Positions 9,896 to 35,300 of a stretch of 64,000 nt of DNA are shown in pieces. This stretch comes from Squalus acanthias (lineage: Eukaryota), in contig JASTWF010000033.1 of NCBI GenBank assembly GCA_030390025.1, forward strand, positions 3,412,001 to 3,476,000, in the 5' to 3' direction. Made by a program: the position numbers and the translations under genes. Every line of letters starts with the position of its first letter. The first letter of the stretch is position 1. The notes below the pieces were generated by a model that was not told the origin of the DNA, did not search any database, and worked only from the letters and a program-made list of their open reading frames with translations.

Positions 9896-10016
9896 GACTT
9901 AACCCTTATATTACTTTATTATGTTAAGTCCCTGAAAACAAAATATAAATCGAACCTACCTTTTAAATTCCCTCTACCCCTAAAGGTTAGAGGAGGTGGT
10001 GGGTTGGAGACACTAC

Positions 10017-11620: not shown

Positions 11621-11963
11621 GCAATGTGATCCTCTGAACGGCAGCTCAGCTCAGCTCTGTCTGTCTGCCTATTGAAGAGGATCTTACTCTGGAAGCTGCA
11701 AATGAATTGCTGCACTCAATAGCTGAAGTGACTCATTACAGAAGAGCTCAGACAGAATGCAACAAATTAGTGGTCCTGTCCCGAAAGTCAATCTGGGAAC
11801 TGTCAGTCAGATATAGTGCCGTGTCCTAAACAGAGTGTTTGCCCCGCCGCCGGTTGTATTTTCAGATCACCAGCGGTTCCTGATGTAATTCAGTTGCTGG
11901 ACGTCTGGGGCTAAATATTAATGTCCTGGACTGGAAACACTGGGACCCGCCTCTGGGCTGCGC

Positions 11964-12856: not shown

Positions 12857-12930
12857 CTGTAAAACACAGAGGGGAAAGGAGAATGGAAATTACTGATCAA
12901 ACATTCTCTGTGTCTGAGACCTGACAGTAA

Positions 12931-13300
12931 GGGCTGGATTTTTGCTCCCCAAATCTGTTGTGTTAAGGTCGGTTCAGAGATTGATGTTAAAAAAATCTCA
13001 TCATAAACCCAACTTGTCTCCAACCTGCCCACTTCTGAGTGTAATGGAGACGGGACGGTGGAGGGTAAGGTTGGAGGGAGGAAGGGGGCTACAATGAGAC
13101 GGGTTGGAAATTTAATTATTTTAATGAGGCTGTCAGCCTCTGATTTAACATTTTTTTACAGGATTAACAGTGGCCGGCCTGGTTTTCCAGTCCTCGGGAA
13201 TCCCGGCAGCTGAGGAGAGGCGAGGACAGCGTCGGGGAGAGTTTTAATGCATTCACAACACTGATTGTAGACCAGGAGGAGCAGGAGTGCTTCGTAGTCA
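12931..13300. mobile_element. Possible non-autonomous DNA transposon fragment (Harbinger-like left end) in the GPCR intron
   Basis: TAA|GGGCTGGATTTT start resembles the TIR at 22419; no matching right end found. Confidence 0.3.
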
Positions 13301-13309
13301 GCACGTATT

Positions 13310-14225
13310 CAAAAAGGAATGTCATGCTTTACCAAATTTAGTAAATTCTTTGAGTAAGTATAGGCAAATGCAGATAAGGGTAATTTGATAGATGTAATAT
13401 ACCTTGATTTTCTAAAACCCTTCGATAAGTTGCAGACTTCGATATGTCCCATTGCAGACTCATGACTAATCTCAGAGCAAGTGGAGCTAGGGGACAAGCA
13501 GCAGAATGGATAGCAGGCTCGCTATAAAAACAGAAAACATGGAGTAGGTGATGAAGGTATTTACCCAGATTAGCGGAAGGTGAGAACTGGTCTTTGACAA
13601 GGACTGGCTCTTGGACCACAGTTGTTCACAATTTACATAACCGATATGGACCCGGGAAGCTGAAGCACAAATGCAACATTTGCAGGCGGATCCAATTTGG
13701 GAGTACAGTTAATACAGTGAAAGAATGCGACCAAATAACTGAAGACATTAAAACATTTGCTGAATGGGCGTTTAAATGGTACATTAATTTCAATGTAGCT
13801 AAATCTGAAGTGCTGCATTTTGGCGGGGAGAATGAGGTTCTCAAATATCCCTTGGAAAAAAAAGTCTGAATGGGGTAGAGGCAATGTGTTTTCGGGCTAC
13901 AGACTCACAAATCATTTAAAGTAGCAAGGCAGGTTAACAAGGCCATCAAATGCACACACAGCACTGGGGCTCATTTCAAGAGGAATGAAATCGAAAAGCA
14001 AAGAGGTTATGTTAAAATGGTAGAACCCTGGTAATACCGTACTGAGCATACTGTGTAGAGTTCAGGACTCCATATTACTAAATGGATTTCCAGGCAGTGC
14101 GGAAGGTCCCAAGATTTTACAAGGATGATTCCAGAACTGAGAGATTATAACTGTCAGGTAACATTGAACAGGCTGGGCCTCTTTCTCTAGATTAGAGAAG
14201 GCTGAGGGGTGATCGAATACAGGCC
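13310..14225 (+). mobile_element. Highly degraded CR1 RT fragment in the GPCR intron
   Basis: GTCATGCTTTACCAAATTTA, CCTTGATTTTCTAAAACCCTTCGATAAG and FAEWAFKW..FNVAKSEVLHFG remnants. Confidence 0.75.
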
Positions 14226-14389
14226 TAGGAAACAGAACAACATCAATCTCTCTACGCTTAGAACCAAACATCTTCAACTAACAGCAAAAATCTTCCCCTT
14301 TACATTCGTAAAACACGAAGGCAGCTCCATGGAAGGGAGAGATCAGTCACCTGAAAAAATGATAGCAAAGTAGTCCTTCTTCTTCCACA

Positions 14390-15050
14390 TCAGTTACAAT
14401 TCTACAGTAAGAGATACTCCCAGTAAAACATGGCCACTGGGGTCAGGTGTTCCACTCCGGTTAGTGAACTACACTCAGTACAGTTCTACAGTGAAAGATA
14501 CTCCCAGTAATAAATGGCCACTGGGGTCAGGTGTTCCACTCCGGTTAGTGACCCACACTCAGTACAGTTCTACAGTGACAGATGCTCCCAGTAATACATG
14601 GCCACTGGGGTCAGGTGTTCCAATCCAGTTAGTGACCCACACTCAGTACAGTTCTACAGTGACAGATATTCCCAGTAATACATGGCCACTGGGGTCAGGT
14701 GTTCCACTCCAGTCAGTGACCCACACTCAGTACAGTTCCACAGTGACAGATACTCCCAGTAATGCATGTCCACTGGGGTCAGGTGCTCCACTCCAGTTAG
14801 TTACCCACACTCAGTAGTTCTACAGTGACAGATACTCCCTGTAATACATGGCCACTGGGGTCAGGTGTTCCACTCCAGTTAGTGACCCACACTCAGTAGT
14901 TTTACAGTGACAGATACTCCCAGTAATACATGGCAACTGGGGTCAGGTGTTCCACTCCGGTTAGTGACCCACACTCAGTACAATTCTACAGTGACAGATA
15001 CTCCCAGTAATGCATGTCCACTGGGGTCAGGTGTTCCGCTCCAGTTAGTG
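14390..15050. repeat. 84-bp minisatellite, ~8 copies, in the GPCR intron
   Basis: Unit ACCCACACTCAGTACAGTTCTACAGTGACAGATACTCCCAGTAATACATGGCCACTGGGGTCAGGTGTTCCACTCCAGTTAGTG; 28-aa periodicity in the ORF track; two copies have a 3-bp deletion. Confidence 0.95.
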
Positions 15051-15302
15051 ATGGATTTTCCAGTAAAGGCAATAACTTCACAATTCAGCGAGAAAGGAGT
15101 TAGAAACAGAGGTTTAATTTACGTTGAGGCAATGGAATAAACCCGCCGAGGTAACTCAGGACATGAACGAAATGATATCACTGATCGGGTGTCTCTATAA
15201 TGGGGATCACGAGACCTGCATGTAACATTGTCAGTCACATAGCAAAACCAGAGACCAGCTCACACACAGATTTACACAACTTCAATGGTTATAGTCACTT
15301 AC

Positions 15303-15884: not shown

Positions 15885-17630
15885 ATCCTCAAACTAATAC
15901 AGCCAATCAAATCTACATACATTCTCAAATTAATAAACTAACTCTAATGAAAATAAGCAAACTGAAGCAGCCCCTCATAACAATACAACACCTCAAACTA
16001 ATACAGCCTCTCAAACTAATACTGGACCTCAAACTAATACAGCGCCTCAAAGTAATACTGTACCTCAAACTAATACAGCCCCTCAAACTAACACAGCACC
16101 TCAAAATAATACAGCACCTCAAACTAATACAGCACCTCAAACTAATACAGCCCCTCAAACTAATACTGCCCCTCAAACTAATACAGCCCCTCAAACTAAT
16201 ACAGCCCCTCAAACTAATGCAACACCTCAAATTAATACAGTAAATCAAACTAATACAGACCCTCAAACTAATACTACCCCTCAAACTAATACAGCCCCTC
16301 AAACTAATACTGCCCCTCAAACTAATACAGTACCTCAAACTAATACAGCCCCTCAAACTAATACAGCCCCTCAAACTAATACAGTACCTCAAACTAATAC
16401 AGTCCCTCAAACTAATTATGCCCCTCAAACTAATACAGTACCTCAAACTAATTCAGCCCCTCAAACTAATACAGCCCCTCAAACTAATACAGATCCTCAA
16501 ACTAATACAGCTCCTCAAACTAATACTGCCCCTCAAACTAATACAGTACCTCAAACTAATACAGCCCCTCAAACTAATACAGCATCTCAAACTAATACAG
16601 CACCTCAAACTAATACAGCACCTTAAACTAATACACCCCCTCAAACTAATACTGTACTTTAAACCAATACAGCCCCTCAAACTAATATAGTCCCTCAAAC
16701 TAATATAGCAACTCAAACTAATACAGCCCCTCAAACTAATACAGCCCCTCAAACTAATACAGCCTCTCAAACTAATACAGCCCCTCAAACTAATAAAGCT
16801 CCTCACACATATACAGCCCCTCAAACTAATGCAGCCCCTCAAACTAATACAGCCCCTCAAACTAATACAGTCCCTCAAATTAATACAGCCCCTCAAACTA
16901 ATACAGTCCCTCAAACTAATACAGCCCCTCAAACTAATACAGCTCCTCACACTAATACAGCCCCTCAAACTAATACAGCCCCTCAAACTAATACAGCCCC
17001 TCAAACTAATACAGCCCCTCAAACTAATACAGCCCCTGAAACTAATACAGCTCCTCACACTAATACAGCCCCTCATACTAATACAGCCCCTGAAACTAAT
17101 ACAGCACTCAAACTAATACAGCCCCTCAAACTAATACAGCCCCTCAAACTAATACAGCTCCTCACACTAATACAGCCCCTCAAACTAATACAACTCCTCA
17201 AACTAATACAGCCCCTCAAACTAATACAGATCCTCAAACTAATACAGCTCCTCAAACTAATACTGCCCCTCAAACTAATACAGTACCTCAAACTAATACA
17301 GCCCCTCAAACTAATACAGCATCTCAAACTAATACAGCACCTCAAACTAATACAGCACCTTAAACTAATACACCCCCTCAAACTAATACTGTACTTCAAA
17401 CCAATACAGCCCCTCAAACTAATACAGCCCTCAAACTAATACAGCCCCTCAAACTAATACAGCCCCTCAATCTAATAAAGCTCCTCAAACTAATACAGAC
17501 CCTCAATCTAATACAGCACCACAAACTAATTCACACCCTCAAAATAATACAGCCCCTCAAACTAATACAGCCCCTAAATCTAATACAGCCCCTCAATCTA
17601 ATACAGCACCTCAAACTAATACACCACCAT
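15885..17630. repeat. 18-bp minisatellite (CCTCAAACTAATACAGCC)n, left part
   Basis: About 90 tandem copies, degenerate at the left edge. Confidence 0.97.
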
Positions 17631-20600
17631 AAAAAGCAAGACCTCAAAGGCTGTAATCTCTGGATTACTCCCGGTGCAACGTGCTAGTGAGTATAGGAAT
17701 AGGATGATAAAGCAGATGAATGCGTGGCTAAATAGTTGGTGCAGGAGGGAGGGATTTCGTTTCCTGGATCACTGCGTCTGCTTTTGGGGAAGATGGGACC
17801 CGTAGAAGTTGGACAGGTTGCACCTGAACCGGAACGGGAGCAACATCCTTGTGGGGAGCTTTTCTATTACTGCTGGGGCGTGGGTGGGTCGGTTGGGGGG
17901 CGTTAAACTAACTTGGCAGGGGGATGGGATATGGTGTGAAGCTGTAGTGGGGGGGATGCACAGCCAAATTAAGAGGAAAAAAACAATCAGTCTGAAAGGC
18001 AGAGCATATATGTAATGGCATAAGGGAGTATGGCTAGGCTGGAGGCATTTATTTTAATGCAAGGTGTCTTGCGACTAAGGTAGATGAATTGAAGGTGTTG
18101 ATGAACACATGCGGGGATGATATTGTGGCTATCACAGAGACATGGTTGAGGGAGGTGCAGGACTGGCAGCTCAATATTCCGGGGTATAGAATCTTCAGGC
18201 GAGACAGAGTGTGGTATAAAATTGAAGAGGTTGTCGCAATATTAACCAAGGAGTCAATTACTGCAGGCAGGAGGGATGATATCTTAGCAGGTTCCTCTAA
18301 TGAGGCTATATGGGTAGAACTTAAAAACAAAAAGGTGTCAAGCACTTTGCTGGGAGTGTACTATAGGCCTCCAAACATTCAGGGGATGAAAGAGGAACAG
18401 ATATGGAGGCAAACCATAGAGAAGTGTAGTAAAAGTATGGTAATAATAGTAGGGAATTTCAACTTCCCCAATATTAACTGGGATAGTCAGAGTGTGAAAG
18501 GGTTAGAGGGTGCAAAATTTTTAAAGTGCATCCAGGAGAGCTTTTTGAGCCAGCATGTAGAAAGTCCAACAAGAGAGGGGGCGGTACTGGACCTAATTCT
18601 GGAGAATGTAGCTGGGCAAGTGGTAGAAGTGTTAGTAGGAGAGCATTTTGGTGACAGTGACCATAATTCGGTGAGATTTAAGGTCCTCATGGAAAAGGAC
18701 AAAGATGGACCGGAAATAAAGTTTCTAAATTGGGGGAAGCCCGATTTTAATATAGAGGACTGGAGAAAAGCTACCGTTGCATCATTTTTCAAGAAGGGTA
18801 GTAGGGATAAACCAGGGAAGTATAGGCCAGTGAAGTAGGGAAATTATTGGAAAAATTCTGAGGGACGGAATTAGTCTCCACTTGGAGAGCAAGGATTAAT
18901 AAAGGATAGATATGCATGGCTTTGTCAGAGGGAGATCATGTCTGACCAAATTGATAGAATTTTTCGAGGGGGTGACTAGGTGTGTGGATGAGGGTAGTGC
19001 AGCTGATGTGGTGTACATGGACTTCAGTAAGGCTTTTAAGAACATAAGAACATAAGAAATAGGAGCAGGAGTAGACCAATCGGCCCCTCGAGCCTGCTCC
19101 GCCATTCAATGTGATCATGGCTGATCTGATCCAACCTCAACTCTAAACAACTCAAGAAGTAGGAGCAGGACCAGGCAACTCGGCCCCTGGGCCCGCTCCT
19201 CCACCCACAGGGCCTTGACCGAACCGAACTCAAACTCATGTCCAATTTCCAGCACGCTCCCTGTAACCCCTGATTCCCTTTACTTCTAGGAAACGGTCTA
19301 GTTCTGTTTTAAATTTATTTAATGATGTAGCTTCCACAGCTTCCTGTGGTAGCAAATTCCACAGACCCACTACCCTCTGAGTGAAAAAGTTTCTCCTCAT
19401 CTCAGTTTTGAAAGAGGAGCCCCTTATTCTAAGATTATGTCCCCTAGTTCTAGTTTCACCCATCATTGGGAACATCCTAACCGCGTCCACCCGATCAAGC
19501 CCCTTCACAATCTTATATGTTTCAATAATATCGCCTCTCATTCTTCTGAACTCCAATGAGTAGAGTCCCAATCTACTCAACCTCTCCTCGTATGTCCACC
19601 CCCTCATCCCCGGAATTAACCGAGTGAACCATCTTTGTACTGCCTCGAGAGCAAGTATGTCTTTTCTTAAGTATGGACACCAAAACTGTATGCAGTATTC
19701 CAGGTGCAGTCTCACCAATACCCTATACATCTGCAGCAATACCTCCCTGTTATTATATTCTATCCCCCTAGCAATAAAAGCCAACATTCCATTGGCTTTC
19801 TTGATCACCTGCTGCACCTGCATACTAACTTTTCGATTTTCTTGCACCAAGACCCCCAGATCTCTTTGTACTGCAGTACTTTCCAGTTTCTCGCCATTAA
19901 GATACTAACTTGCTCTCTGATTTTCCTGCCAAAGTGCATAAACTCACATTTTCCAATATTGTATTGCATCTGCCAAATCTCTGCCCACTCACCCAGCCCG
20001 TCTATATACCCTTGTAGGTTTTTTATGTCCTCCTCACTCTCTACTTTCCCTCCCATCTTTGTATCATTTGCAAACTTTGATATGTTACACTCGGTTCCCT
20101 CCTCCAAATCGCTAATATAGATTGTAAAGAGTTGGGGACCCAGCACCGACCCCTGTGGAACACCACTGGCTACTGGTTGCCAGTCCGAGAATGAACCATT
20201 TATCCCAACTCTCTGCTTCCTGTTAGATAACCAATCCTCCACCCATGCCAGAATATTACCCCCAATCCAGTGATTTTTTATCTTGAGTAATAATCTTTTA
20301 TGTGGCACCTTGTCGAATGCCTTCTGGAAGTCTAAATACACTACATCCACTGGTTCCCCTTTATCCACCCTGTACGTTATGTCCTCAAAGAACTCGAGCA
20401 AATTTGTCAGACATGACTTCCCCTTCATAAAGCCATGCTGACTTTGTCCTATTAAATTATGTTTATCGAAATGTTCTGTTACTGTCTCCTTAATAATAGA
20501 CTCCAAAATTTTACCCACCACAGATGTTAGGCTAACTGGTCTATAATTTCCAGCCTTCTGCCTACAACCCTTTTTAAATAAGTGTGTTACATTAGCAGTT

Positions 20601-22418
20601 TTCCAATCTGCTGGAACCTTTGCTGAGTTCAGGGAGTTTTGGAAAATTATTACCAAAGCATCCAGAATTCCTACTGTTACTTCCCTCAAGACCCTAGGAT
20701 GTAAGCCATCAGGTCTAGGGGATTTATCCGCCTTGAGTCCCATTATTTTACTGAGTACCAATTCCTTAGTGATTTTAATCGTATTTAGCTCCTCCCCCAC
20801 TAGAGCCCCCTGTTTGTCCAGTGTTGGGGTATTCTTAGTGTCCTCTACCGTAAAGACTGAAACAAAATATTTGTTCAGCATTTTAGCCATCTCCATGTTT
20901 CCCACCATTAATTTCCCGGTCTCATCCTCTGAGGGACCTACGTTTGCCTTAACCACCCTTTTTCTTTTGATATAACTATAGAAACTCTTGCTATCTCTGT
21001 TTATATTTTTTGCTAATTTATTTTCATAGTCTATTTTCCCTTTCTTAATCAATCCTTTAGTTACTTTTTGTTGTCTTTTGTAGACTTCCCAATCTTCTAT
21101 CCTCCCACTAACTTTGGCTACCTGATATGTCCTTGTTTTTAGTTGGATACTTTCTTTAATTTCTTTACTTAGCCATGGATGGCTGTCATTTCTTTGACAC
21201 CCTTTTTTCCTCAGTGGAATATATTTATTTTGAAAGTTGTAATATAACTCCTTGAATGAACACCACTGCTCATGTCCCGCATGGGAGATCGATCAAGACG
21301 GTAAGAGCCCATGGAATCCAGGGCAACTTGGCACATTGGATCCAAAATTGGCTTAGTAGCAGGAGGCAGAGGATGATGGACGAAGGTTGGTTTTGTGACT
21401 GGAAGCCTGTGTCCAGTGGTGTACAGCAGGGATCGGTGCTGTGTCCTTGGCTGTTTGTAGTGTACATTAATGATTCAGATATGAATGTAGGAGGTATGAT
21501 CAGTAAGTTCGCAGATGACACGAAAATTGGTGGGTTGGTAACTAGCGAGGATGCAATCCTTAGGCTACAGGACAATATAGACGGGTTGGTCAGAAGGGCA
21601 GAACAGTGGCAAATGGAATTTAACCCTTAAAATTGTGAGGTGATGCATTTTGGGAGGAGTAAAAAGGCAATGGAATACACAATGAATGGTAGGACTCTAG
21701 GAAGAACAGAGAATCAGAGGGACCTTGGTGTGCATGTACATAGATCTCTGAAGGTAGCAGGACAGGTAGATAAGGTGGTTAAAAAGGCATATGGTATACT
21801 TGCCTTCATTAGCCGAGGCATAAAATATAAGAGCAGGGAGGTTATGATGGAGCTGTACAAAACGCTAGTTAGGCCACAGCTGGAATACTGTGTGCAGTTC
21901 TGTTCGCCGCACTATAGGAAGGATGTGATTGCATTGGAGAGGGTACAGAGGAGATTCACCAGGATGTTACCTGGGCTGCAGCGCTTCAGCTATGAAGAAA
22001 GACTGGACAGGCAGGGGTTGTTTTCCTCAGAGCAGAGAAGTCTGAGGAGGGACCTGATTGAGGTGTACCGAATTATGAGGGGCATAGATAGGGTAGATAG
22101 AAAGGAACATTTCCCTTAGTAGAGGGGTCAATAACCAGGGGGCATAGTTTCAAGGTAAGGGGCTGGATATTTAGAGGGGATTTGAGGAAAAACTTTTTCA
22201 AACAGAGGGTGGTTGGAATCTGGAACTCATTGCATGAAAGGGTGGTAGAGGCAGGAACCCTCACAACATTCAAGAAGCATTTAGATGAGCACTTGAAATG
22301 CCATAGCGTACAAGACTACGGACCAAGTGCAGGAAAATGGGATTAGAATAGACAGGACTTGATGGCCGGCGGAGACACAATGGGCCGAAGGGCCTCTTTC
22401 TGTGCTGTATAACTCTAT
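17631..22418 (+). mobile_element. CR1 LINE (element D): ORF1 esterase end, ORF2 with internal deletion, 3' UTR; interrupted by element E
   Basis: KSKTSKAVISGLLPV at ~17631; endonuclease ORF 18089-18750 joined directly to EDWRKA (RT); DFSKAF|VPHG split at 19037/21274; RT ORFs 21274-22119; hairpin and ACTCTAT tail at 22381-22418. Confidence 0.9.
19038..21273 (-). mobile_element. 5'-truncated CR1 LINE (element E) nested in element D
   Basis: RT ORFs 21052-19805 and 19850-19236 (one frameshift; FAND instead of FADD); (TTCTTATG)n tail at 19038-19058. Confidence 0.93.
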
Positions 22419-22726
22419 GGGGTAAAAATTCACTTGGTTGCGCCTCCCGTTAGCGCCTTAAGAGAGCGCTAATGGGGCGTTAAGCCGCTAACGCCCGGGC
22501 GCAGCGCTGTTTGCGCCGCTCGAGAACTTAACTTGAGATTGTGCGGCGGTGCTAAAACTTACCGCTGCGACCACCTGCGCGCGCAGATTGTGACGTCATT
22601 CCATGGTGCAACGCCCTTGGGGCGCCCCGGAGCGGAAATTGAGTGGCGCCCCCTGCCTTACCGCCTGGCGCTTCCAACGACCGGAAGACTGGAACGTTAT
22701 CAATCGGTGTGGGGCTGGGGGGGGCG

Positions 22727-22735
22727 CTATTTAAA
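22727..22735 (+). promoter_or_regulatory. Candidate TATA-like box (TATTTAAA) for the transposase gene
   Basis: Follows a GC-rich segment, ~210 bp upstream of the ATG. Confidence 0.35.
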
Positions 22736-22788
22736 GGGGGCCTCTTCCTGTCTTTTTCTGTGGTCGACATTTATGCACCACTCGTTCT

Positions 22789-22825
22789 GAGAGAGAGAGA
22801 GAGATTCGGAGAGAGAGAGAGAGAG
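22789..22825. repeat. Interrupted (GA)n microsatellite in the transposase 5' region
   Basis: Directly visible. Confidence 0.9.
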
Positions 22826-22942
22826 ACTTCTACATTGACTCAACGCTTTGTGAGGTAGTTTTGCCTAGTTCATCCTAACTTTGTTGCTACTTTAGTTGCT
22901 GTACCTCATTACTTTTCTTGCAAAGAGAATATTGGGGCTGCA

Positions 22943-24091
22943 ATGATTGGGGGCGTCGTCCTGCTCCAGCTGAATCGGAGGATAGTGAGACGCAGACAGA
23001 GAGTGGCAATGATGGCCAGACGGAGGAGGGCCATCAGGCGCATGTACAGGAGAGCTTACCCTCCCAGGGTATATCGTGAACAGCTCTCCTACATCCATAT
23101 GTCCGAGGAGCTGTGTTTGCGAAGGCTGCGATTCAGCAAGGAGGTGGTCACTGAGCTCTGCCACCTGCTGCAGCCAGATCTGCAGCCTCAGCTGAGGTCC
23201 AGGACGTCTCTGTCGGTGGCAGTGAAGGTCACAGTGGCTTTGAACTTCTACGCCACTGGCTCATTCCAAGCTGCTGTTGGGGACCTCGCCAATATCTCCC
23301 AGTTTGCGGTGCATCGCTGCATCCGGCAGGTCACCAATGCCCTCTTCAGAAGGAGACGAGACTTCATCTCTTTCCCTATGACCCCAGACAAGCAGCGTGA
23401 CCGTGCTCTGGGCTTTGCGAGGGTAGCGGGCTTCCCCATGGTGCAGGGCGCCATTGACTGCACGCGTGTGGCTTTGCGTGCTCCGCGAGAGAATGCAGAG
23501 GAATTCAGGAACAGAAAGGGGTTCCATTCCTTGAATGTGCAGTTGGTCTGTGACCACAGACAGGAGATACTCGCTGTCAATGCCCACTATCCGGGCAGCT
23601 GCCACGATGCTTTCATCCTGCGCCAGACTACTGTGGCAGAAGTTTTCGAGGCACCACATCAGCCAGTTGGTTGGCTTCTGGGGGACAAGGGGTACGCATT
23701 GAGCACCTGGCTGATGACACCGCTCCGTACGCCAAACACCCCTGCTGAGCTGCGGTACAATGAAAGCCATCAAGCAACCAGGAACATTATTGAGCGCACA
23801 ATCGGCGTGCTGAAACAACGGTTCCGCTGTCTGGACCATTCCGGAGGAGCCCTGCAGTACTCGCCTGAGCAAGTTTCGAACTTCGTAGTCGTGTGCTGCA
23901 TGTTGCACAACATGGCAATCCTCAGGACCCAGCCAATGCCACCAGGCCTTGTAGCACCACCAGAGGAGGAGGAGGAAGAGGAGGAACAGGACGAGGACGA
24001 TGATCATCAGCAGCACCAAGGCAGGAGGGCGGCCCACAATGGTCAAACTGCAAGGGCCGTCCGTCAACGACTAATAGCAAGCCGCTTCTAG
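22943..24091 (+). CDS. Harbinger DDE transposase (HARBI1-like nuclease), 382 aa, intact ORF
   Basis: LRRLRFSK, ALNFYATGSFQ HTH region, GAIDCT, NRKGFHSLNVQLVCD, YPGSCHDAFIL, LLGDKGY, IERTIGVLKQRFRCL, acidic tail. Confidence 0.95.
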   Translation: MIGGVVLLQLNRRIVRRRQRVAMMARRRRAIRRMYRRAYPPRVYREQLSYIHMSEELCLRRLRFSKEVVTELCHLLQPDLQPQLRSRTSLSVAVKVTVALNFYATGSFQAAVGDLANISQFAVHRCIRQVTNALFRRRRDFISFPMTPDKQRDRALGFARVAGFPMVQGAIDCTRVALRAPRENAEEFRNRKGFHSLNVQLVCDHRQEILAVNAHYPGSCHDAFILRQTTVAEVFEAPHQPVGWLLGDKGYALSTWLMTPLRTPNTPAELRYNESHQATRNIIERTIGVLKQRFRCLDHSGGALQYSPEQVSNFVVVCCMLHNMAILRTQPMPPGLVAPPEEEEEEEEQDEDDDHQQHQGRRAAHNGQTARAVRQRLIASRF

Positions 24092-24385
24092 GGCCCCTGC
24101 CATTGCTACAAACACTAATCAACCCAGCACGCAACCCCTAAGCCGGCCAAGGCACCAATAATTCCAACCACCAGCCATGTATATTTTGAATACAGAAACT
24201 TATTTATTTTACAAACTCTGTGTGTGTCAATTCCTCATGACAAACTCATAGAAATAAACACAAAAAAACAGTCAATAACATAACTGGTTCTCACAACCTG
24301 GAGATAATGTCCAAAACACTAAACAAAAGTTGGACCATGAACCTCGGCCTTTAATAAAAAAATGACCAGCATTTTGGCACACCTC

Positions 24386-26372
24386 CTACTTTTTGCCCTT
24401 CGAGGGTGATCTCCTTCCCTTGCGCACTTCCCCCCTTCTAACCCTACTGCTCCTCCGTAATGGGACCTCAGTGGCTGCAGCAAGGCTGGTGGAAGGCTGC
24501 TGCTCGTCAGACCCTGACACTGCAGATGCCCCTGAAGGACGGCCTCGACCACTTCTGGGACTGGAGGGCCCGGCTGCAGACTGCACCAACTCTGCATGGG
24601 CGGCAGCAGTCTGTCCTACAGGCGGTGGCAGGTGCAGTGGAGAAGTGACAGTGTTGGCAGCAGGAATGCTGTCATCGTGAGAGGGGCCAGCAACTCCCTG
24701 CTCGCCCGACACACTGGCACTCCCACGGGGCAGCACTTCAGCATCCGGAGCAATTTGCCGGAGAACAGATTGCTGGCCTGCTGCGGCGCGGTGACAGCCC
24801 CGGGGACATGTGCACGAACCATCGAGGTTGGCAGCAGTCTGTGCTCGCGTGGCCTCCATCTGAGTCTGTATGAGAGCAATCAGAGGTGGGATCACGGCAG
24901 CCAGTGACTGAATTGCAGCACTAAGCGTTAGTGTGGCATCCGCCTGTGCTACAGCGAAGTGCTCCACACTCCTTGCCAATGACTCAATGCAATCGGGCAC
25001 CCTTCCCACTGCACCCATGAGCTCAGTGTGCATGCTCACCGCCTGGGTGTTCATTTCTGCAATCAGCCGCTCCTCCTCTGCGTCCATTGCAGTAGGAGTG
25101 TCTGGCATACTCTCCCTCTGGGGAGAAGGCCCCCGTTCTTCCCTACCCCCCCCCCCCATGGCGTTGCTGCAGCCCGCTGGGTCCTGGAGCTTCACCATCA
25201 TCAGCCCCTTCCCCCCTGCTCCCCTCCGGGGAAGGCGTGTTCCCAGTGTGGGCATGGGCTTCCTCGGGAGAGGGTGGCACTGATGCTCCGGCTTCCTCTT
25301 CCTCCTCAGCTGCAGCATCACTCCCAGTGGCAGCTTCAGGGCCCGTCTCCTCAGCTGGTGAATCACCATCTGAAAGCAGGGAGGTACAAGAGTGGCTTTA
25401 GCGTGAGGACAGGGTGGCAGTAAGGGAGGAATAAGTGCAGCGAGTTAGCAAGTTGGATTGAAAGTGTCAAAGGCTGGTATTGTGAGGGACAAGTGGAAGG
25501 ACAGAGGACAAAAAGGTGATGACCTTACCATTGCTGTCCACAACGGGGTCGGCGTCTCCAGTGGCGACGGGACCGATCACCCGGCTTGCCACAATCCTGT
25601 GGACGCGCTCCTCCAGATCGCTGAGGGGTTGCAGCTGAAGCCGCCCTCCACCCGTCCATTGCTGCTGTCTCCGATTATGAGCCAGCTTAGCCTGCAAGAA
25701 AAAGGACAGCATCTGAGTAAATATACAGCCATGGTCTTGCCTGATGTGCCTCCCATAGGTGAATAGCCCTTACAATATACAGCCATGGTCTGGCCTGATG
25801 AGCCTCCCAAAGGTGAATAGCCCTTACAATATACAGCCATGGTCTTGCCTGATGTGCCTCCCATGGTTGAATAGCCCTTACAATATACAGCCATGGTCTT
25901 GCCTGATGTGCCTCCCATAGGTGAATAGCCCTTACAATATACAGCCATGGTCTTGCCTGATGTGCCTCCCATAGGTGAATAGCCCTTACTGTATGCAAAG
26001 TGTGGAATGTGTGTGTGTTTGATGAAAGGGCCATAGGTGTTGGAATTGAGTTGTGCATTGGGGTTTTAAGACCTTCTGGCCATAGAGTGAGGTTGCGATG
26101 GAGGGATGGAGAGGTATTGAGAAAAAGCCACTCACCCTGACGACCCGAGTGAGGTCGTTGAACTTTTTGCAGCATTGAACATGGGTCCTGGGCACCATGC
26201 TCCTGGAGGAGACGCTCTGAGCCACCTCCCTCCACACTCTTCTGAACTCGCGTGGCAAAGGCCTCCTGCCACTCTCCGGGAACAGCATGCATCGTCTGCG
26301 CTCCACTGCGTCAACCAAAGCATCCAAGGCCCGCTCGGTGAAGCGATGAGCGCGTTCTCTCACCCTCTCCAT
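24386..26372 (-). CDS. Harbinger Myb/SANT-like DNA-binding protein, three exons (26372-26136, 25691-25529, 25369-24386), +1 frameshift in G12 run at 25157-25146
   Basis: Exon 1 RFTERALDALVDAV...WREVAQSV...RTHVQCCKKFNDL; exon 2 AKLAHNRRQQQWTGGG; GTGAGT/TTGCAG and GTAAGG/TTTCAG splice sites with consistent phases 0 and 1; basic C-terminus RRSSRVRR...KGKK. Confidence 0.85.
25718..25989. repeat. 54-bp minisatellite, 5 copies, in intron 1 of the Myb-like gene
   Basis: Unit TACAATATACAGCCATGGTCTTGCCTGATGTGCCTCCCATAGGTGAATAGCCCT. Confidence 0.95.
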
Positions 26373-26747
26373 GCTTGGCAGCAAAATGGATTACAGGTCT
26401 CTCCAGGCTGAGATTCAAGGCTGCAATGAGCAGGGTGTGGCTGGGGAGCAAGTGCCCCCCCCCCCCCCCCGCTTTAAGAAGTGTCCGGCGCCATTGTGTC
26501 TGTGTTCCCTCGCTAACTGGCAGCAGCTGCGCTGCGCTCGTGCGCTGAGTTAGCGCCTCACTCCTTGGCCTTTAGCCTTAAGAGAGGTGTCCAGTGCCTA
26601 CTTTAGCGCTCCACTCCCCTCCCGGGGCGGTAAAAGTGAAGTTTCCTGCCAGTGCCGATAATTAGCACCAGGCGCTAATATTTGCGTCCGGACGATATTT
26701 GCGCCCCAAATGGGGCGCGACCTAATTTCTACACCACTGACTCTATT

Positions 26748-27520
26748 TCTCAAAATTAATACCGCCCCTCGAACTGATACAGACCCTCAAACTAATACAG
26801 CCCCTCAAACTAATAGAGAATCTCAAACTAATAGAGCTCCTCAAACTAATACAGACCTCAAACTAATACAGATCCTCAAACTAATAGAGCTCCTCAAACT
26901 AATAGAGCCCCTCAAACTAATACAGATCCTCAAACTAATACAGCTCCTCAAACTAATACAGACCCTCAAACTAATAGAGAACCTCAAACTAATAGAGCTC
27001 TTCAAACTAATACAGACCCTCAAACTAATACAGCCCCTCAAAATAATACAGCCCCTCAAACTAATACAGCTCCTCAAACTAATATAGCCCCTCAAACTAA
27101 TACAGACCCTCAAACTAATACAGACACTCAAACTAATACAGCACCTAAAACTAATACAGCCCCTCAAACCAATACAGACCCTCAAACTAATAAAGCCCCT
27201 CAAACTAATACAGCCCCTCAAACTAATACAGCAAATCAACCTAATACAACTCCTCAAACTAATACAACACCTCAAACTAATACAGCACCTCAAACTAATA
27301 CAACCGCTCAAACTATTACAGCACCTCAAACTAATACAGAACCTCAAACTAATACAGCACCTCAAACTAACACAGCACCTCAAAATAATACAGCACCTCA
27401 AACTAATACAGCACCTCAAACTAACACAGCACATTAAAATAATACAGCACCTCAAACTAATACACCCCCTCAGACTAATACAGCTCCTCATACTAATACA
27501 GACCCTCAGACTAATACAGA
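26748..27520. repeat. 18-bp minisatellite (CCTCAAACTAATACAGCC)n, right part
   Basis: Same unit and orientation as 15885-17630. Confidence 0.97.
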
Positions 27521-27524
27521 AACT

Positions 27525-28897
27525 GTGACAGCTCAGAGTCAGACACTGAAAACACTGAATCCACAGTGACATCACACACGGCCCCCTCCAAGGGACAGCT
27601 CAGAGTCAGAGACTGAAAACACTGCACCCACAGTGACATCACACACTGCACCCTCCCTGGGACAGCTCAGAGTCAGTCACTGAACAAACTGCACCCACAG
27701 TGACATCACACACTGCCCCCTCCCTGGGGCAGCTCAGATTTAGACACTGAATACACTGCACCCACAGTGACATCACACACTGTCCCCTCCCTGGGACAGC
27801 TCAGGGTCAGGCACTGAACACACTGCACCCACAGTGACATCACACACTGTCCCCTCCCTGGGACAGCTCAGGGTCAGACACTGAACACACTGCACCCACA
27901 GTGACAGCACTCACTGCCCCCTTCCTGCGGCAGCTCAGAGTCATGACACTGAACACACTGCACCCACAGTGACATCACACAGAGCCCCCTTCCGGGAACA
28001 GCTCAGAGTCGGTCACTGAAAATACTGCACCCAAAGTGACATCACAAACTGCCCCCTTCCTGGGGCAGCTCAGAGTCATGACACTGAACACACTGCACCC
28101 ACAGTGACATCACACACTGCCCCCTCCCGGGAACAGCTCAGAGTCGGTCACTGAAAATACTGCACCCAAAGTGACATCACAAACTGCCCCCTCCCTGGGA
28201 CAGCTCAGAGTCAGACACTGAACACACTGCACCCACAGTGACAACACACACTGCCCCCTCCCTGGGAAAGCTCAGAGTCAGACACTGAACATACTGCACC
28301 CACAGTGACATCACATACTGCGCCCTCCCTGGGAAAGGTCAGAGTCAGACACTGAACATACTGTACCCACAGTGACATCACACACTGCGCCCTCCCTGGG
28401 ACAGCTCAGGGTCAGACACTGAACATACTGCACCCACAGTGACATCACACACTGCCCCCTCCCTGGGACAGCTCAGCGTCAGACACTGAACATACTGCAC
28501 CCACAGTGACATCACACACTGCCCCCTCCCTGGGACAGCTCAGTGTCAGACACTGAACATACTGCACCCAGAGTGACATCACACACTGCCCCCTCCTTGG
28601 GGCAGCTTAGGGTCAGACACTGAACACACTGCACCCACAGTGACATCACACACTGCCCCCTCCCTGGGACAGCTCAGAGTCAGACACTGAACATACTGCA
28701 CCCACAGTGACATCACAAAGAGCCCACTCCCTGGGACAGCTCAGATTCAGACACTGAACTCACTGCAACTAAAGTAACATCACATACTTCACCCTCACTG
28801 GGACAGCTCAGAGTCAGACACTGAACCCACTGCACCTACAGTGACATCTAAAACTGCCCCCTCCCTGGTACCGCTCTGAGTCAGACACTGAACACAC
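27525..28897. repeat. 67-bp tandem repeat, ~20 copies, runs into assembly gap
   Basis: Unit GACAGCTCAGAGTCAGACACTGAACACACTGCACCCACAGTGACATCACACACTGCCCCCTCCCTGG; GACATC at 28441 and 28508. Confidence 0.96.
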
Positions 28898-29397
28898 NNN
28901 NNNNNNNNNNNNNNNNNNNNNNNNNNNNNNNNNNNNNNNNNNNNNNNNNNNNNNNNNNNNNNNNNNNNNNNNNNNNNNNNNNNNNNNNNNNNNNNNNNNN
29001 NNNNNNNNNNNNNNNNNNNNNNNNNNNNNNNNNNNNNNNNNNNNNNNNNNNNNNNNNNNNNNNNNNNNNNNNNNNNNNNNNNNNNNNNNNNNNNNNNNNN
29101 NNNNNNNNNNNNNNNNNNNNNNNNNNNNNNNNNNNNNNNNNNNNNNNNNNNNNNNNNNNNNNNNNNNNNNNNNNNNNNNNNNNNNNNNNNNNNNNNNNNN
29201 NNNNNNNNNNNNNNNNNNNNNNNNNNNNNNNNNNNNNNNNNNNNNNNNNNNNNNNNNNNNNNNNNNNNNNNNNNNNNNNNNNNNNNNNNNNNNNNNNNNN
29301 NNNNNNNNNNNNNNNNNNNNNNNNNNNNNNNNNNNNNNNNNNNNNNNNNNNNNNNNNNNNNNNNNNNNNNNNNNNNNNNNNNNNNNNNNNNNNNNNN
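28898..29397. other. Assembly gap (500 N)
   Basis: N run of round length, so true size unknown. Confidence 0.99.
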
Positions 29398-32300
29398 TGC
29401 TCTCCTCACTGTTTCCTACATTTCAACAGTCCGTCTCTGTGCTCCTGAAGTCTGCTACTCTCCTCAATGTTTAATACATTTCACCAGTCTGTTTTTGTGC
29501 TCCTGAAGTATGCTACTCTGCTCACTGTTTACTACATTTCACCAGTCTGTTAATGTGATCCTGAAGTCTGCCAATCTCTTCACTGTTTACAACGTTTCAC
29601 CAGTCTGTCTGTGTGCTCCTGAAGTCTGCTGCTCTCCTCACTGTTTACAACATTTCACAAGTCTCTCTGTGGGCTCCTGAAGTCTGCTAATCTCCTCACT
29701 GTTAACCACATTTCAACAGTCTGTCTGTGCTCCTGAAGTCTGCGACTCTCCTCACTGTTTTCTGCATTTCACCAGTCTGTCTGTCTGTTCCTGAAGTCTG
29801 CTCATCTCCTCACTTTTTGCTGCATTTCACCAGTCTGTCTGTGTGCTCCTGAAGTCTGTTACTCTCCTCACTGTTTACTACATTTCCCCAGTCTGTCTGT
29901 GTGCGTCTGAATTCTGCTACACTCCTCACTGTTTACTACATTTCACCAGTCAGTCTGTTTTCTCCTAAAGTGTGTTACTCTCCTTACAGTTTACTACATT
30001 TCACCAGTCTGTCTGTGTGTTCCTGAAGTCTGCTACTCTCCTCACTGTTTACTACATTTCACCAGTCTGTCTGTGTGCTCCTGATGTCTGTTATTCTCCA
30101 AACTGTTTAATACATTTCGCCAGTCTGTCTGTGTGCTTCTGCAGTCTGCTACTCTCCTCACTGTTTACTACATTTCAACAGTCTGTCTATGTGCTCTACA
30201 AGTCTGCTACTCTCCTCACTGTTTACGACATCTCACCAGTCTGTCTATGTGATCCTGAAGTCTGATAATCTCCTCACTCTTTACTACATTTCACCAGTCT
30301 GTCTGTGTGCTCTTTAAGTCTGCTACTCTCCTCACTGTTTACTACATTTCTTCAGTCTGTCTGTGTGATCCTGAAGTCTGCTACTCTCCTCTCTTTTTAC
30401 TACATTTCTCCAGTATGTTTGCGTGTTCCTGAATTCTGCTAATATCCGCCCTGTTTACTACATGTCACCTGTCTGTCTGTGTGCTCCTGAAGTTTGTTAC
30501 TCTCCTCACTTTTACTACATTTCACCAGTCTGTCTGTGTGCTCCTGAAGTCAGCTATTCTCCTCACTGTTTTCTACATTTCAACTTCTCTCAATGTGATC
30601 CTGATGTCTGCTACTCTCCTCAGTGTTTACTACATTTAACCAGTCTGTCTTTGTGCTCCTGAAGTCTGCTACTCTCCTCACTGTTTACCACATTTCACCA
30701 GTCTGTCTGTGCTCCTGAAGTCTGCCACTCTCCTCACTGTTTTCTACATTTCACCAGTCTGTCTGTGTGCTCCTGAAGTCTGATACTCTCCTCACTGTTT
30801 ACTACATTTCACCAGTCTGTCTGTGTGCTCCTGAAGTCAACTGCTCTCCTCACTGTTTACTACATTTCACCAGTCTCTCTGTGTGATCCTGAAGTCTGCT
30901 ACTCTCATCACTGTTTACGACATTTCACCAGTCCGTCTGTGTGCTCCTGAACTCTGCTACTTTCCTCACTGTTTACAGCATTTTACCAGTCTGTCTGTGT
31001 CCTCCTGAAGTATGCTACTCTCCTCACTGTTTACTGCATTTCACCAGTCTGTCTGTGCTCCTAAAGTCTGCTGCTCTCCTCGATGTTTACTACATTTCAC
31101 CAGTCTGTCTGTGCTCCTGAAGTCTGCTGCTCTCCTCACTGTTTACTACATTTCAACAGAGTCTCTGTGTGCTCCTGAAGTCTGGTACACTCTTCACTGT
31201 TTACTAAATTTCACCAGTCTGTCTGTGTGCTCCTGAAGTCTGCTACTCTCCTCACTGTTTACTACATTTCACCAGTCTGTCTGTGTACTCCTGAAGTCTG
31301 CTGCTCTCCTCACTGTTTTCTACATTTCACCAGTCTGTCTGTGTGCTGCTGACGTCTGGTACTCTCTTCACTGTTTAATACGTTTCACCAGTCTGTCTCT
31401 GTGCTCCTGAAGTCTGCTACTCTCCTCAATGTTTAATACATTTCACCAGTCTGTTTTTGTGCTCCTGAAGTCTGCTACTCTCCTCACTGTTTACGACATT
31501 TCAATATGTCTGTCTATGTGCACCTGAAGTCTACTACTCTCCTCAATGTTTACTACATTTCACCAGTCTGTCTGTGTGTTCGTGAATTCTGCCACTCTCC
31601 TCACTGTTTGCTGCATTTCACCAGTCTGTCTGTCTGTTCCTGAATTCTGCGACTCTCCTCACTGTTTACTACATTTCACCAGTCTGTCTGTGTGCTCCTG
31701 AATTCTGTCACTCTCCTCACTGTTTAGTACATTTCAACAGGCTCTCTGTGCAACTGAAGTCTGCTACTCTCCTCACTGTTTATTACATTTCACCAGTCTG
31801 TCTGTGTGATCCTCAAGTCTGCGACTCTCCTCACTGTTTCCCTCCATTTCACCAGTCTGTCTGTGTGCTCCTGAAGTCTGCTACTTTCCTCACTGATTGC
31901 TACATTTCACCTGTCTGTCTGTGTGCTCCTGAAGTCTGCTACTCTCCTCACTGTTTACTGCATTTCACGAGTCTGTCTGTGTGCTGCTGAAGTCTAGTAC
32001 TCTCTTCAGTGTTTAATACGTTTCACCTGTCGGTCTGTGTGCTCCTGAAGTCTGTTACTCTCCTCACTGTTTACTACATTTCACCAGTCTGTCTTTGTGC
32101 TCCGGAATCTGTTACTCTCCTCACTGTTTACCACATTTCACCAGTCTGTCTGTGTGCTCCTGAAGTCTGCTGCTCTCCTCACTGTTTACTACATTTCACA
32201 AGTCTGTCTGTGCGCTCCTGAAGTCTGATACTCTCCTCACTGTTTACTACATTTCACCAGTCTGTCTTTGTGCTCCTGAAGTCTGATACTCTCCTCACTG

Positions 32301-35300
32301 TTTACTGCATTTCACCAGTCTGTCTGTGTGCTCCTGAATTCTGATACTCTCATCACTGTTTACTGCATTTCACCAGTCTGTCTGTGTGCTTCTGAAGTCT
32401 GTTACTCTCTTCACTGTTTACAGCATTTCACCATTCTGTCTGTCTGTTCCTGCAGTCTGATAATCTCCTCACTTTTTGCTGCATTTCACCAGACTGTCTG
32501 TGTGCTCCTGAATTCTGCTACACTCCTCACTTTTTACTACATTTCACCAGTCTGTCTGTGTGCTCCTGAAGTCTGCTACTCTCCTCACTGTTTACCACAT
32601 TTCAACAGTCTGTCTGTGCTCCTGAATTCTGCGACTCTCCTCACTGTTTTCTACAATTCACCAGTCTGTCTGTGTGATCCTGAAGTCTGCTACTCTGCTC
32701 ACTGTTTACTACACTTCACCAGTGAGTCTGTGCTCCTGAAGTCTGCTGCTCTCCTCACTGTTTACTACATTTCAACAGACTGTCTGTGTGCTCCTGAAGT
32801 ATGGTACTCTCTTCACTGTTTACTACATTTCACCAGTCTGTCTGTGTGCTCCTGAAGTATGGTACTCTCTTCACTGTTTACTACATTTCACCAGTCTGTC
32901 TGTGTGCTCCTGAAGTCTGTTACTCTCCTCAGTGTTTACTACATTTCACCAGTCTGTCTGTGTGCTCCTGAAGTCTGTTGCTCTCCTCACTGTTTACTAC
33001 ATTTCACCAGTCTGTCTTTGTGCTCCTGAAGTATGCTACTCTCCTCACTGTTTACTACATTTCACCAGTCTGTCTGTGTGATCCTGAAGTCTGCTACTCT
33101 CTTCACTGTTTACAACGTTTCACCAGTCTGTCTGTGTGCTCCTGAAGTCTGCTGCTCTCCTCACTGTTTACTACATTTCACAAGTCTGTCTGTGTGCTCC
33201 TGAAGTCTGCTATTCTCCTCACTGTTTACCACATTTCAACAGTCTGTCTGTGCTGCTGAAGTCTGCGACTCTCCTCACTGTTTTCTACATTTCACCAGTC
33301 TGTCTGTCTGTTCCTGAAGACTGCTCATCTCCTCACTGTTTACTACATTTCACCAGTCTGTCGGTGCTCCTGAAGTCTGGTACTCTCTTCACTGTTTACT
33401 ACATTTCACAAGTCTGTCTGTGTGCTCCTGAAGACTGTTACTCTCCTCAGTGTTTACTACATTTCACCAGTCTGTCTGTGTGCTCCTGAAGTCTGTTGCT
33501 CTCCTCACTGTTTCCTACATTTCACCAGTCTGTCTGTGTGCTCCTGAAGTCTGCTACTCTCCTCACTGTTTACTACATTTCACCAGTCCGTCTGTGTGCT
33601 CCTGAAGTCTGCTACTCTCCTCACTGTTTACTACATTTCACCAGTCTGTCTTTGTGCTCCTGAAGTATGCTACTCTCCTCACTGTTTACTACATTTCACC
33701 AGTCTGTTAATGTGATCCTGAACTCTGCTACGCTCTTCACTGTTTACAACGTTTCACCAGTCTGTCTGTGTGCTGCTGAAGTATGCTGCTCTCCTCACTG
33801 TTTACAACATTTCACAAGTCTGTCTGTGTGCTCCTGAAGTCTGCTACTCTCCTCACTGTTTACCACATTTCAACAGTCTGTCTGTGCTCCTGAAGTCTGC
33901 GACTCTACTCACTGTTTTCTACATTTCACCAGTCTGTCTGTCTGTTCCTGAAGTCTGCTCATCTCCTCACTTTTTGCTGCATTTCACCAGTCTGTCTGTG
34001 TGCTCCTGAAGTCTGGTACTCTCTTCACTGTTCACTACATTTCACCAGTCTGTCTGTGTGCTCCTGAAGTCTGCTGCTCTCCTCACTGTTTACTACATTT
34101 CACGAATCTGTCTGTGTGCTCGTGAAATCTGTTGCTCTCCTCACTGTTAACTGCATTTCACAAGTCTGCCTGTGTGCTCCTGAAGTCTGTTACTCTCCTC
34201 ACTGTTCACTACATTTCACCAGTCTGTCTATGTGGTCCTGAAGTCTGCTACTCTCCACACTGTTTACGACATTTCACCAGTCTGTCTGTGTGCTCCTGAA
34301 GTCTGATACTCTCCTCAAAGTTTACTACATGTCACCAGTTTGTCAGTGTGCTCCGGAAGTCTGATACTCTCCTCACTGTTTAGTACATTTCACCAGTCTG
34401 TCTGTTTGCGTCTGAATTCTGCTAATCTCCTCACTGTTTGCTGTATTTCACCAGTCTGTCTGTGTGCTCCTGAATTCGGCTACTCTCCTCACTGTTGCTG
34501 CATTTCACCAGTCTGTCTGTGTGCTCCTGAAGTCTGTTACTCTCCTCACTGTTCACTACATTTCACCAGTCAGTCTGTGTGCTCCTGAAGTCTGTTAATG
34601 TCCTCACTGTTTACTACATTTCACCAGTCTGCCTGTGTGCTCCTGAAGTCTGGTACTCTCTTCACTGTTTACAACATTTCACCAGTCTGTCTGTGTGCTC
34701 CTGAAGTCTGCTGCTCTCCTCACTGTTTACTACATTTTACATGGTTGTCTGTCTGTTCCTGAATTCTGCTGCTCTCTTCACTGTTTACTACATTTCACCA
34801 GTCTGTCTGTGTTCTCCTGAAGTCTGCTACTTTCCTCACTGTTTACTGCATTTCACCAGTCTGTCTGTCTGTTCCTGAAGTCTGCTGCTCTCCTCACTGT
34901 TTACTACATTTCACCAGTCTGTCTGTCTGTTCCTGAAGTCTGCTGCTCTCCTCGATGTTTACTACATTTCACCAGTCTGTCTGTGTTCTCCTGAAGTCTG
35001 CTACTCTCCTCACTGTTTACTGCATTTCACCAGTCTGTCTGTCTGTTCCTGAAGTCTGCTGCTCTCCTCACTGTTTACTACATTTCAACAGATATTCTTT
35101 GCTCCTAAAGTCTGCTGCTCTCCTCGATGTTTACTACATTTCACCAGTCTGTCTGTGTGCTCCTGAAGTCTGCTACTCTCCTCACTGTTTACTACATTTC
35201 AACAGACTGTCTGTGTGCTCCTGAAGTCTGGTCCTCTCTTCACTGTTTACTACATTTCAGCAGTCTGTCTGTGCTCCTGAAGTCTGCTGCTCTCCTCACT

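Follow-up and report, generated by a model that had tools for sequence, protein, structure and literature searches.

Among the described systems closest to the locus examined here is Harbinger3_DR of zebrafish, which corresponds to NuwaI-2_DRer in the accessible text of PMC4482050 and which, according to excerpts of PMC2836001, PMC3016246 and PMC9710019, was reconstructed by Sinzelle et al. (2008). Both Harbinger proteins are required for transposition, as the available portions of PMC2836001, PMC9392472 and PMC9710019 state and as the initial annotation of this DNA had held. In cartilaginous fishes, a survey reported no Harbinger in the elephant shark (PMC9179366), and in a reef-shark genome Tourist/Harbinger elements were the commonest DNA transposons, the families not being described (PMC12498223). 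Intact vertebrate Harbingers and one reconstructed element have already been published.

The window, the whole stretch of 64,000 nucleotides from Squalus acanthias that was analysed, contains a Harbinger element of 4,317 bp (22419..26735) with terminal inverted repeats (TIRs), a transposase gene and a convergent Myb/SANT-like gene; no further copies were found within the window. In this cartilaginous-fish genome it very probably represents the genuine insertion of a once-autonomous PIF/Harbinger transposon that has since been in neutral decay. Contrary to what had been proposed initially, the copy is not nearly active but an ordinary, decaying member of an abundant family; that proposal had missed that the third exon of the Myb gene is frameshifted and that the first transposase start codon is lost, and the H175R change that it noted proved to be private. 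The description as a full-length two-gene Harbinger, with its boundaries, was upheld by the TIRs, the restoration of a LINE tail when the element is deleted from the sequence, and matches to DDE_Tnp_4 and PF13873.

Comparison of the ends gave a left TIR of 12 bp starting with a purine (22419..22430, + strand) and a right TIR (26724..26735, - strand) with two mismatches in twelve, as first reported. The 12-mer is not unique at up to two mismatches (five other sites in the 64 kb), whereas a 13-mer of the TIR end matches only the two element ends in the window. The element is nested in the octamer tail of a LINE that is older than itself, decayed and left with reverse-transcriptase remnants (17624..22418, + strand, 5' limit approximate), which we take to be a CR1; the rest of the tail is recognised by its sequence at 26739..26746 (+ strand). 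The LINE and the Harbinger together split an 18-bp minisatellite, delimited by repeat search, into a left (15968..17623) and a right part (26753..27519). Deleting 22419-26735 together with one triplet from the sequence restores the LINE octamer tail with no indel. In this register the flanks fit the Harbinger3_DR target at 8 of 12 letters, a fit reached by 121 of 22,385 background positions. The registers 22418/26736 (with CTA/CTG) and 22420/26734 (with ATG/CAC) were rejected, each fitting at 3 of 12. Therefore, the boundaries hold, since the LINE tail is restored and only this register of the three resembles the Harbinger3_DR flanks.

The left target triplet TAT (22416..22418, + strand), which sits in the LINE tail, and the right triplet ACT (26736..26738, + strand) have the spacing of a 3-bp duplication and agree at one letter of three at this one decayed site, so that the target duplication is not clean, as had been noted. 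Neither triplet is TWA, the narrow PIF/Harbinger duplication, in the best register of this single, decayed site, and the element is not filed under NuwaI, whose duplication is CWG. In one head-to-tail contig, two ends are separated by CTG when three G are assigned to the TIR, and one contig (joint 26732 to 22418) has a family end with C at 26733. A joint of 22419 to 26753 in sequencing run X1 was considered as an empty allele and rejected, its 11 inserted letters differing from the predicted empty site. Inside the ends, the motif TWWGCGCY occurs three times in the CpG-rich left subterminal region (22431..22700) and four times in the right one (26480..26723), and is absent from the 3,779-nt element middle and from window positions 1-15000. 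The motif, picked after inspection of the element ends, is a candidate binding site of the Myb protein.

The transposase frame (22943..24091, + strand) runs uninterrupted for 382 aa with D172 (GAID), D248 (GDKGY) and E284 (IERT), as first annotated, and matches Pfam DDE_Tnp_4 (PF13359, E=1e-38). In the confidently predicted structure (pLDDT 89.9), D172 lies in a strand, D248 right after a strand and E284 in a helix, a placement also described in the part of PMC4482050 consulted. DDE enzymes ranked highest in Foldseek, with no matches at E<=0.001; a PDB search with the sequence returned nothing below E=0.18. A predicted complex of transposase residues 30-335 with the Myb C-terminal helices, for which alignments were not used, scored 0.00. 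Among 8,000 candidates scored, the nearest proteins are from Pristiophorus japonicus, the top three being 61-66% identical, and in a tree made of database hits only the transposase falls within a 39-row clade (support 100/99) with the closest shark and ray hits.

Comparison with run contigs and homologues shows two changes in the transposase. Codon 175 (23465..23467, + strand) specifies Arg in the element and His in the family: position 23466 is A (His) in 1050986 of 1051848 depth in X1 and in all depth in runs X6 and X15, and His is found in 103 of 116 homologues, which bears out the earlier remark that R replaces the usual H. Arg stands there in 3 of 47 longer homologues. No paper on a conserved histidine at this position was found in a literature search of partly available texts. 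The first start codon (22931..22933, + strand), four codons upstream of the next ATG, is ATT here and ATG in the family; 22933 is G in 247678 of 247697 depth in X1 and in all depth in X6 and X15, and the homologues P0001 and P0002 start with MGA. Both changes, at codon 175 and at the first ATG, are private to this copy.

Beyond a spacer with AATAAA on both strands (24092..24385) lies the convergent Myb/SANT-like gene, on the - strand. Its exon 1 (26136..26372, 79 codons) carries the Myb domain and matches PF13873 (E=4e-8), exon 2 (25529..25691) has 163 nt, and exon 3 (24386..25369) encodes an acidic region followed by a C-terminal region in another frame. The three-exon structure proposed earlier stands, both introns being bounded by GT-AG, but the gene is not intact: spliced at canonical sites, its frame ends at 208 aa. 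The break (25143..25157, - strand) consists of a 12-base C run (25146-25157) followed by a stop (25143-25145). Protein P0123 aligns with the Myb cDNA at 13-618 in frame 1 (43%) and at 623-1372 in frame 2 (32%), with a joint E of 3.5e-69, and P0123, P0124 and P0121 all change frame at the C run (cDNA 613-624). The frameshift removes about 250 C-terminal residues from a protein that, with the break bridged, would have about 460 aa; the predicted 208-aa product retains the whole Myb domain. The copy therefore falls outside the 'potentially active' class of Han et al. (2015), in which both ORFs are intact. Since transposition needs both proteins and the Myb gene is frameshifted, it is most likely non-autonomous and unable to move on its own.

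Seven other AG acceptor sites in 25500-25100 give more than 250 aa and were rejected, as the acidic region is then read in a frame unused by homologues or is mostly skipped; an open 460-aa product was rejected because it needs the donor shifted by one base to a non-GT site. Intron 1 holds a 54-bp tandem repeat in five copies (25720..25989), whose additional units are seldom present in the family: X1 depth at 25773-25923 is 30,712, against 628,113 and 361,110 in the flanks. No RNA run is listed among those sharing the element's 31-mers; a contig of X15 (guessed to be an RNA run) spanning 25968-26423 is unspliced, and none of the 15 joints listed (of 36) is a predicted splice junction. When longer proteins were searched by words for Myb exon 1, 156 candidates emerged, none of which was scored.

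The family is interspersed and multi-copy, with 31,304 contigs in X1 (of varied identity, from 55% of the run), 7,419 in X6 and 639 in X15, and this copy lies about 1-2% from its majority letters; the family is abundant and not very diverged, which agrees with the initial reading. Over 4,501 positions compared, at least 25% of the depth differs at 118 (X1), 108 (X6) and 120 (X15), and in 15 of the 39 in-element rows listed another letter holds at least 95% of X1 depth. Recent activity, which had also been proposed, holds only in a relative sense, since seven organisms (A-G), each with a run containing 0.48-0.79 of the element's 31-mers, share the family at an implied identity of 97.7-99.2% and sharks mutate slowly (PMC10587355). 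At the epaulette-shark rate, 1.5-2.6% corresponds to 21-37 million generations, a figure too uncertain to serve as an age and inflated by subfamily differences. The CpG retention cited earlier is borne out in part. Observed/expected CpG is 0.55 in the element (0.98 over 22419-22942) and 0.18 elsewhere in the window; the latter value is low because of the satellites (0.06-0.12), bases 1-14000 having 0.41 and the host LINE 0.32-0.33.

In most of the family, codon 175 specifies His, the first ATG is present and the length of the run keeps the frame. This, together with the retention of both ends and seven subterminal motifs here, would suit a family still transposing via intact copies elsewhere that could mobilise this broken copy in trans, as one-gene Harbingers are mobilised according to the accessible parts of PMC13668399 and PMC8437027. 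Such a reading, although compatible with the preferred one, is unlikely: 15,639 of the 31,304 X1 contigs are less than 95% alike, which with the sharing by seven organisms fits an older spread, and the 5,266 contigs at least 99% alike are no sign of young copies because they are short (the longest X1 pieces listed have 98-126 nt).

It is less likely still that the copy itself is nearly intact and competent, with a C run misassembled so as to mimic a frameshift and with tolerated amino-acid changes. Long homopolymers are error-prone in assemblies, the run length was read from the assembly and not from reads of this copy itself, and a true run of 11 or 14 bases, which the 12 may misrepresent, would restore the frame. 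However, the run has 5 bases in two of the three runs covering the site, namely in an X15 contig (220.5 of 220.5 depth), in one X6 contig and in seven X6 loose ends, so that real slippage has happened; the short-run evidence rests on X15 and X6, since none of the contigs listed for X1, which has the greatest depth, shows a shorter run. The open transposase with D, D and E and its confident fold also favour competence, as does Arg175 in 2 of the 19 homologues with all three residues. Nevertheless, 39-59% of copies simulated at this divergence keep the 382-codon frame stop-free and about 27% escape small indels; an open frame is unremarkable when a sizeable share of neutral copies keeps it, and there are many more private changes (TIR, start codon, intron). 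That the genes are a domesticated host pair, as HARBI1 and NAIF1 are, is extremely improbable, as the database name 'putative nuclease HARBI1' appears, from the many hits per species, to be an automatic label on many transposon copies, and it is contradicted by the TIRs, by the nesting in a LINE tail within a minisatellite, by variant contigs numbering in the tens of thousands and by the disabling changes private to this copy.

The preferred history, a once-autonomous insertion in neutral decay, is as follows, on the view that the family worked like Harbinger3_DR, whose mechanism is taken from the literature. The Myb-like protein would bind the subterminal motifs and carry the DDE transposase to the nucleus and to the ends, and the transposase would excise the element and integrate it into a favoured 15-bp palindrome, duplicating 3 bp. 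The octamer tail of the LINE fits this site, and its similarity may be the cause of the insertion there. Afterwards, expansion of the homopolymer frameshifted the Myb gene, and the copy acquired H175R, the loss of the first ATG, the TIR change and the tandem expansion in intron 1. Points against this history are the possible assembly error in the homopolymer, the lack of short-run contigs in the X1 listing, the Myb domain retained in a 208-aa product that is little shorter than the 221-aa Myb protein of Harbinger3_DR, Arg175 in some homologues, the confident transposase model and triplets alike at one letter of three.

As it stands, the locus matters little, because it holds one decaying copy and transposons of this kind are already known, and it adds detail on a thinly described group. 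It also cautions against taking an open frame for the transposase, CpG retention and a divergence of 1-2% as proof of near-activity in a slowly mutating lineage. A wider proposition, that the family keeps competent copies which insert today and are steered into LINE tails by a Harbinger3_DR-like target preference, is doubtful. If true, cartilaginous fish would gain their first characterised active Harbinger, none having been found in the partial texts of our literature search, and the family would be a natural two-component system in which to probe the roles of the conserved histidine and of the Myb protein's long C-terminus; intact mobile copies would offer a shark-derived, sequence-selective two-protein transposon for study.

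Compared with known systems, the family resembles Harbinger-Snek of sea kraits, likewise a vertebrate Harbinger that has two genes, is abundant and includes numerous defective copies. Harbinger-Snek differs, according to the available text of PMC8437027, in its 269 copies that are intact in L. colubrina, in the RNA evidence for it and in its horizontal transfer. With so many intact copies in one sea krait, the earlier statement on the decay of most vertebrate copies makes intact ones seem rarer than they are. The expansions in Pleurodeles waltl and coelacanth are likewise large Myb-bearing families in slowly evolving vertebrate genomes, although Harbinger expression was shown in the newt (PMC5741667, in part). 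Closer by lineage are unannotated chondrichthyan Harbinger families, labelled in NCBI and UniRef 'putative nuclease HARBI1' and 'myb-related transcription factor, partner of profilin-like'. The Myb gene is colinear with P0123 over its length; since no match above 66% identity occurs among the 8,000 candidates, the family is without a close record in the protein collection searched. Harbinger3_DR differs in its CWG duplication, against TAT/ACT here, and in its Myb protein of 221 aa, against about 460 aa here once the frame break is bridged. It is alike in its length of about 4.2 kb, its 12-bp TIR and its DDE_Tnp_4 and Myb_DNA-bind_5 domains (Table S5 of PMC4482050, as far as accessible), and the GGG with which NuwaI TIRs start in the same partial source is counted as a further likeness; the two are likened by architecture and by flanks that match the published target at 8 of 12 letters.

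The element at 22419-26735, a 4,317-bp Harbinger transposon, is real yet is an ordinary defective copy. Its transposase frame (22943-24091, plus strand) is open over 382 aa, carries the catalytic residues D172, D248, and E284, as described in the initial annotation, and matches Pfam DDE_Tnp_4 with E=1e-38. A Myb/SANT domain (PF13873, E=4e-8) is encoded on the minus strand by the exon at 26372-26136. Insertion took place in the octamer tail of a decayed LINE, presumably a CR1 (reverse-transcriptase match at 21256-21627), and that LINE itself interrupts an 18-bp minisatellite; therefore, the minisatellite came first, followed by the LINE and then by the Harbinger. A second LINE fragment (about 19040-21270, limits approximate, minus strand) appears to be inserted within the host LINE in reverse orientation.

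Inverted repeats of 12 bp, mismatched at 2 of 12 positions as annotated, are present at both ends; since the left end is matched equally well at five other places in the 64-kb window, their resemblance says little by itself. Three terminal registers were compared for restoration of the LINE tail and for fit of the flanks to the target of Harbinger3_DR, a zebrafish two-gene Harbinger (PMC3016246). Of these, only 22419/26735 rebuilds the tail with no indel, and its flanks fit at 8 of 12 positions versus 3 and 3 for the others, a score of 8 being reached at 121 of 22,385 background positions. The target triplets, TAT on the left and ACT on the right, form a poor duplication, in agreement with the earlier reading, and one contig joining two ends head to tail is compatible with a CTG duplication and a three-G inverted repeat, which leaves both repeat length and target duplication provisional. 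At 26733-26737 on the right end, three apparent substitutions in five bases (one in the inverted repeat, two in the target triplet) exceed the expectation from 1-2% divergence and perhaps represent one complex event.

The family is abundant. Scoring of 8,000 candidate proteins gave 254 matches, of which the best 120 were listed; the best of all come from sharks and rays, the top three at 61-66%. Twenty listed sequencing runs, from 11 studies, contain the stretch, and seven organisms each have a run in which 0.48-0.79 of the 31-mers recur, or 97.7-99.2% identity by a naive conversion. Contigs were compared for four of the 21 listed runs (X1, X6, X15, and X21, the last contributing none): X1 gave 31,304 (5,266 at ≥99%, 10,399 at 95-99%, 13,175 at 90-95%, and 2,464 below 90%), X6 gave 7,419, and X15 gave 639, summed depth not being equivalent to copy number. 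Places with at least 25% of depth differing number 118, 108, and 120 of 4,501 in X1, X6, and X15, an upper bound of 2.4-2.7% in which flanks and subfamily variants are counted as well. Of the 40 listed rows (of 146), 39 lie inside the element, and at 15 of these another letter stands in at least 95% of X1 depth, so that divergence is no less than 0.35%. In five deep X15 contigs there are 28 differences in 1,483 (1.9%), or 10 in 1,025 (1.0%) with the most divergent removed. This copy thus lies about 1-2% from its family and, at a shark mutation rate of 7e-10 per generation (PMC10587355), it is not young.

The convergent three-exon Myb gene proposed initially retains its domain and its GT-AG junctions (exons 26372-26136, 25691-25529, and 25369 onward), but it is not intact, as the spliced frame stops after 208 aa directly behind a 12-base run at 25146-25157. 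Sixty-two homologues, of which the seven looked up by name are shark proteins, were aligned to the unchanged spliced sequence. P0123 follows frame 1 until cDNA position 618 and frame 2 over 623-1372 (joint E=3.5e-69), the change of frame falls at 615/614 in P0124 and P0121, and P0129, P0133, and P0134 likewise match C-terminally in frame 2; many of the remainder match N-terminally alone and are uninformative on the switch. A five-base run, which is in frame, is found in one X15 contig (220.5/220.5 depth), one X6 contig, and seven X6 loose ends, and none of the X1 contigs listed has a gap giving a shorter run at 25146-25157. The Myb gene of this copy is broken, with about 250 C-terminal residues lost, including a helical stretch common to homologues; since the 208-aa product retains the DNA-binding domain, the gene has probably, though not certainly, lost its function. 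The run length of exactly 12 could be an assembly error. Slippage has occurred repeatedly in this copy: a second C run (26455-26470) has 16 bases, exceeding its length in the contigs of X6 and X15 by 7, and the intron repeat at 25720-25989 has grown to five 54-bp units.

The transposase is open but altered. Position 23466 is A in 1,050,986 of 1,051,848 X1 depth and in all X6 and X15 depth, so the family has His175 where this copy has Arg, the departure already noted in GAIDCTRV. Of 116 homologues, 103 have His at this position; the figure for D172 is lower (95 of 117), since many matches are themselves decayed. Arg is found in 3 of 47 longer homologues, two of them within the 19 bearing D, D, and E, which argues against a firm conclusion on H175R. 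Nearly all contigs carry G at 22933, where the family has an ATG four codons upstream (start MGA, as in homologues P0001 and P0002) and this copy ATT, probably a mild loss. The predicted structure is confident (pLDDT 89.9); Foldseek returned no significant match for it, with DDE enzymes ranking top. In simulations at 1.5-2.6% divergence, 39-59% of frames remain stop-free and about 27% stay clear of indels at the local rate; therefore, an open transposase requires neither selection nor recent activity. Among the homologues, P0021, P0025, P0057, and P0070, as well as P0010 and P0012, form short-branched clades that reach across distantly related genera of sharks and rays. Catalytic residues are changed in some of these proteins, which are candidates for domesticated Harbinger transposases.

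Harbinger transposition requires both proteins, the Myb-like protein binding the ends and importing the transposase (PMC2836001, PMC9392472, PMC9710019), and this family would presumably work in the same way. We infer that this copy is unable to move alone. The initial suggestion that it is close to active does not hold, given the frameshifted Myb gene, the private H175R and first-ATG changes, and an open frame that is unremarkable at this divergence.

The motif TWWGCGCY, picked after inspection of the ends, has three copies within the leftmost 281 nt, four within the rightmost 256 nt, and none in either the intervening 3,779 nt or positions 1-15000 of the window. By analogy with the subterminal 9-bp site of Harbinger3_DR (PMC9710019), it may be a Myb binding site. 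The CpG retention noted earlier (observed/expected 0.55 versus 0.18 for the remaining window) owes much of its contrast to satellite (0.06-0.12), which makes up most of that remainder; the LINE-rich first 14 kb has 0.41. The excess is genuine at the element ends (0.98 and 0.66) but modest in its other parts.

Elsewhere in the window, a LINE ORF2-like stretch (5568-8531, plus strand) with endonuclease and reverse-transcriptase matches is open for 747 aa, followed by one stop and 239 aa more in frame, and is fairly well preserved amid the stacked fragments of 1-10000. A GDSL/SGNH esterase-like frame (8951-9541, minus strand, E=1.6e-12) is of a kind typical of ORF1 proteins in such LINEs. The rhodopsin-family GPCR-like frame at 11964-12896 (minus strand; 7tm_1, E=5e-11 and 4e-5), in which a stop divides 181 aa from 128 aa, looks like a pseudogene. 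Tandem arrays comprise 8 copies of 84 bp (14385-15051), 20.5 copies of 67 bp (27523-28897), and 268 and 322 copies of a 58-bp satellite in opposite orientation (29400-44880 and 45381-64000). The latter two abut a 500-N gap (44881-45380), a further gap lying at 28898-29397, and their inversion may be a scaffolding artefact.

By its transposase, Myb gene, inverted repeats, and copy number, the element belongs to the PIF/Harbinger superfamily, the level at which it is assigned because the target duplication is unclear. Literature listings, together with passages of PMC9179366 and PMC12498223, yielded no description of shark Harbinger families. Size class, inverted repeat length, and domain pair are all shared with Harbinger3_DR (PMC4482050), and the two presumably work alike; this copy falls outside what that paper counts as potentially active. 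Intact vertebrate Harbingers are already known, with 269 intact copies in a sea krait (PMC8437027) and expressed expansions in a newt (PMC5741667), and this element adds a member to a known kind.
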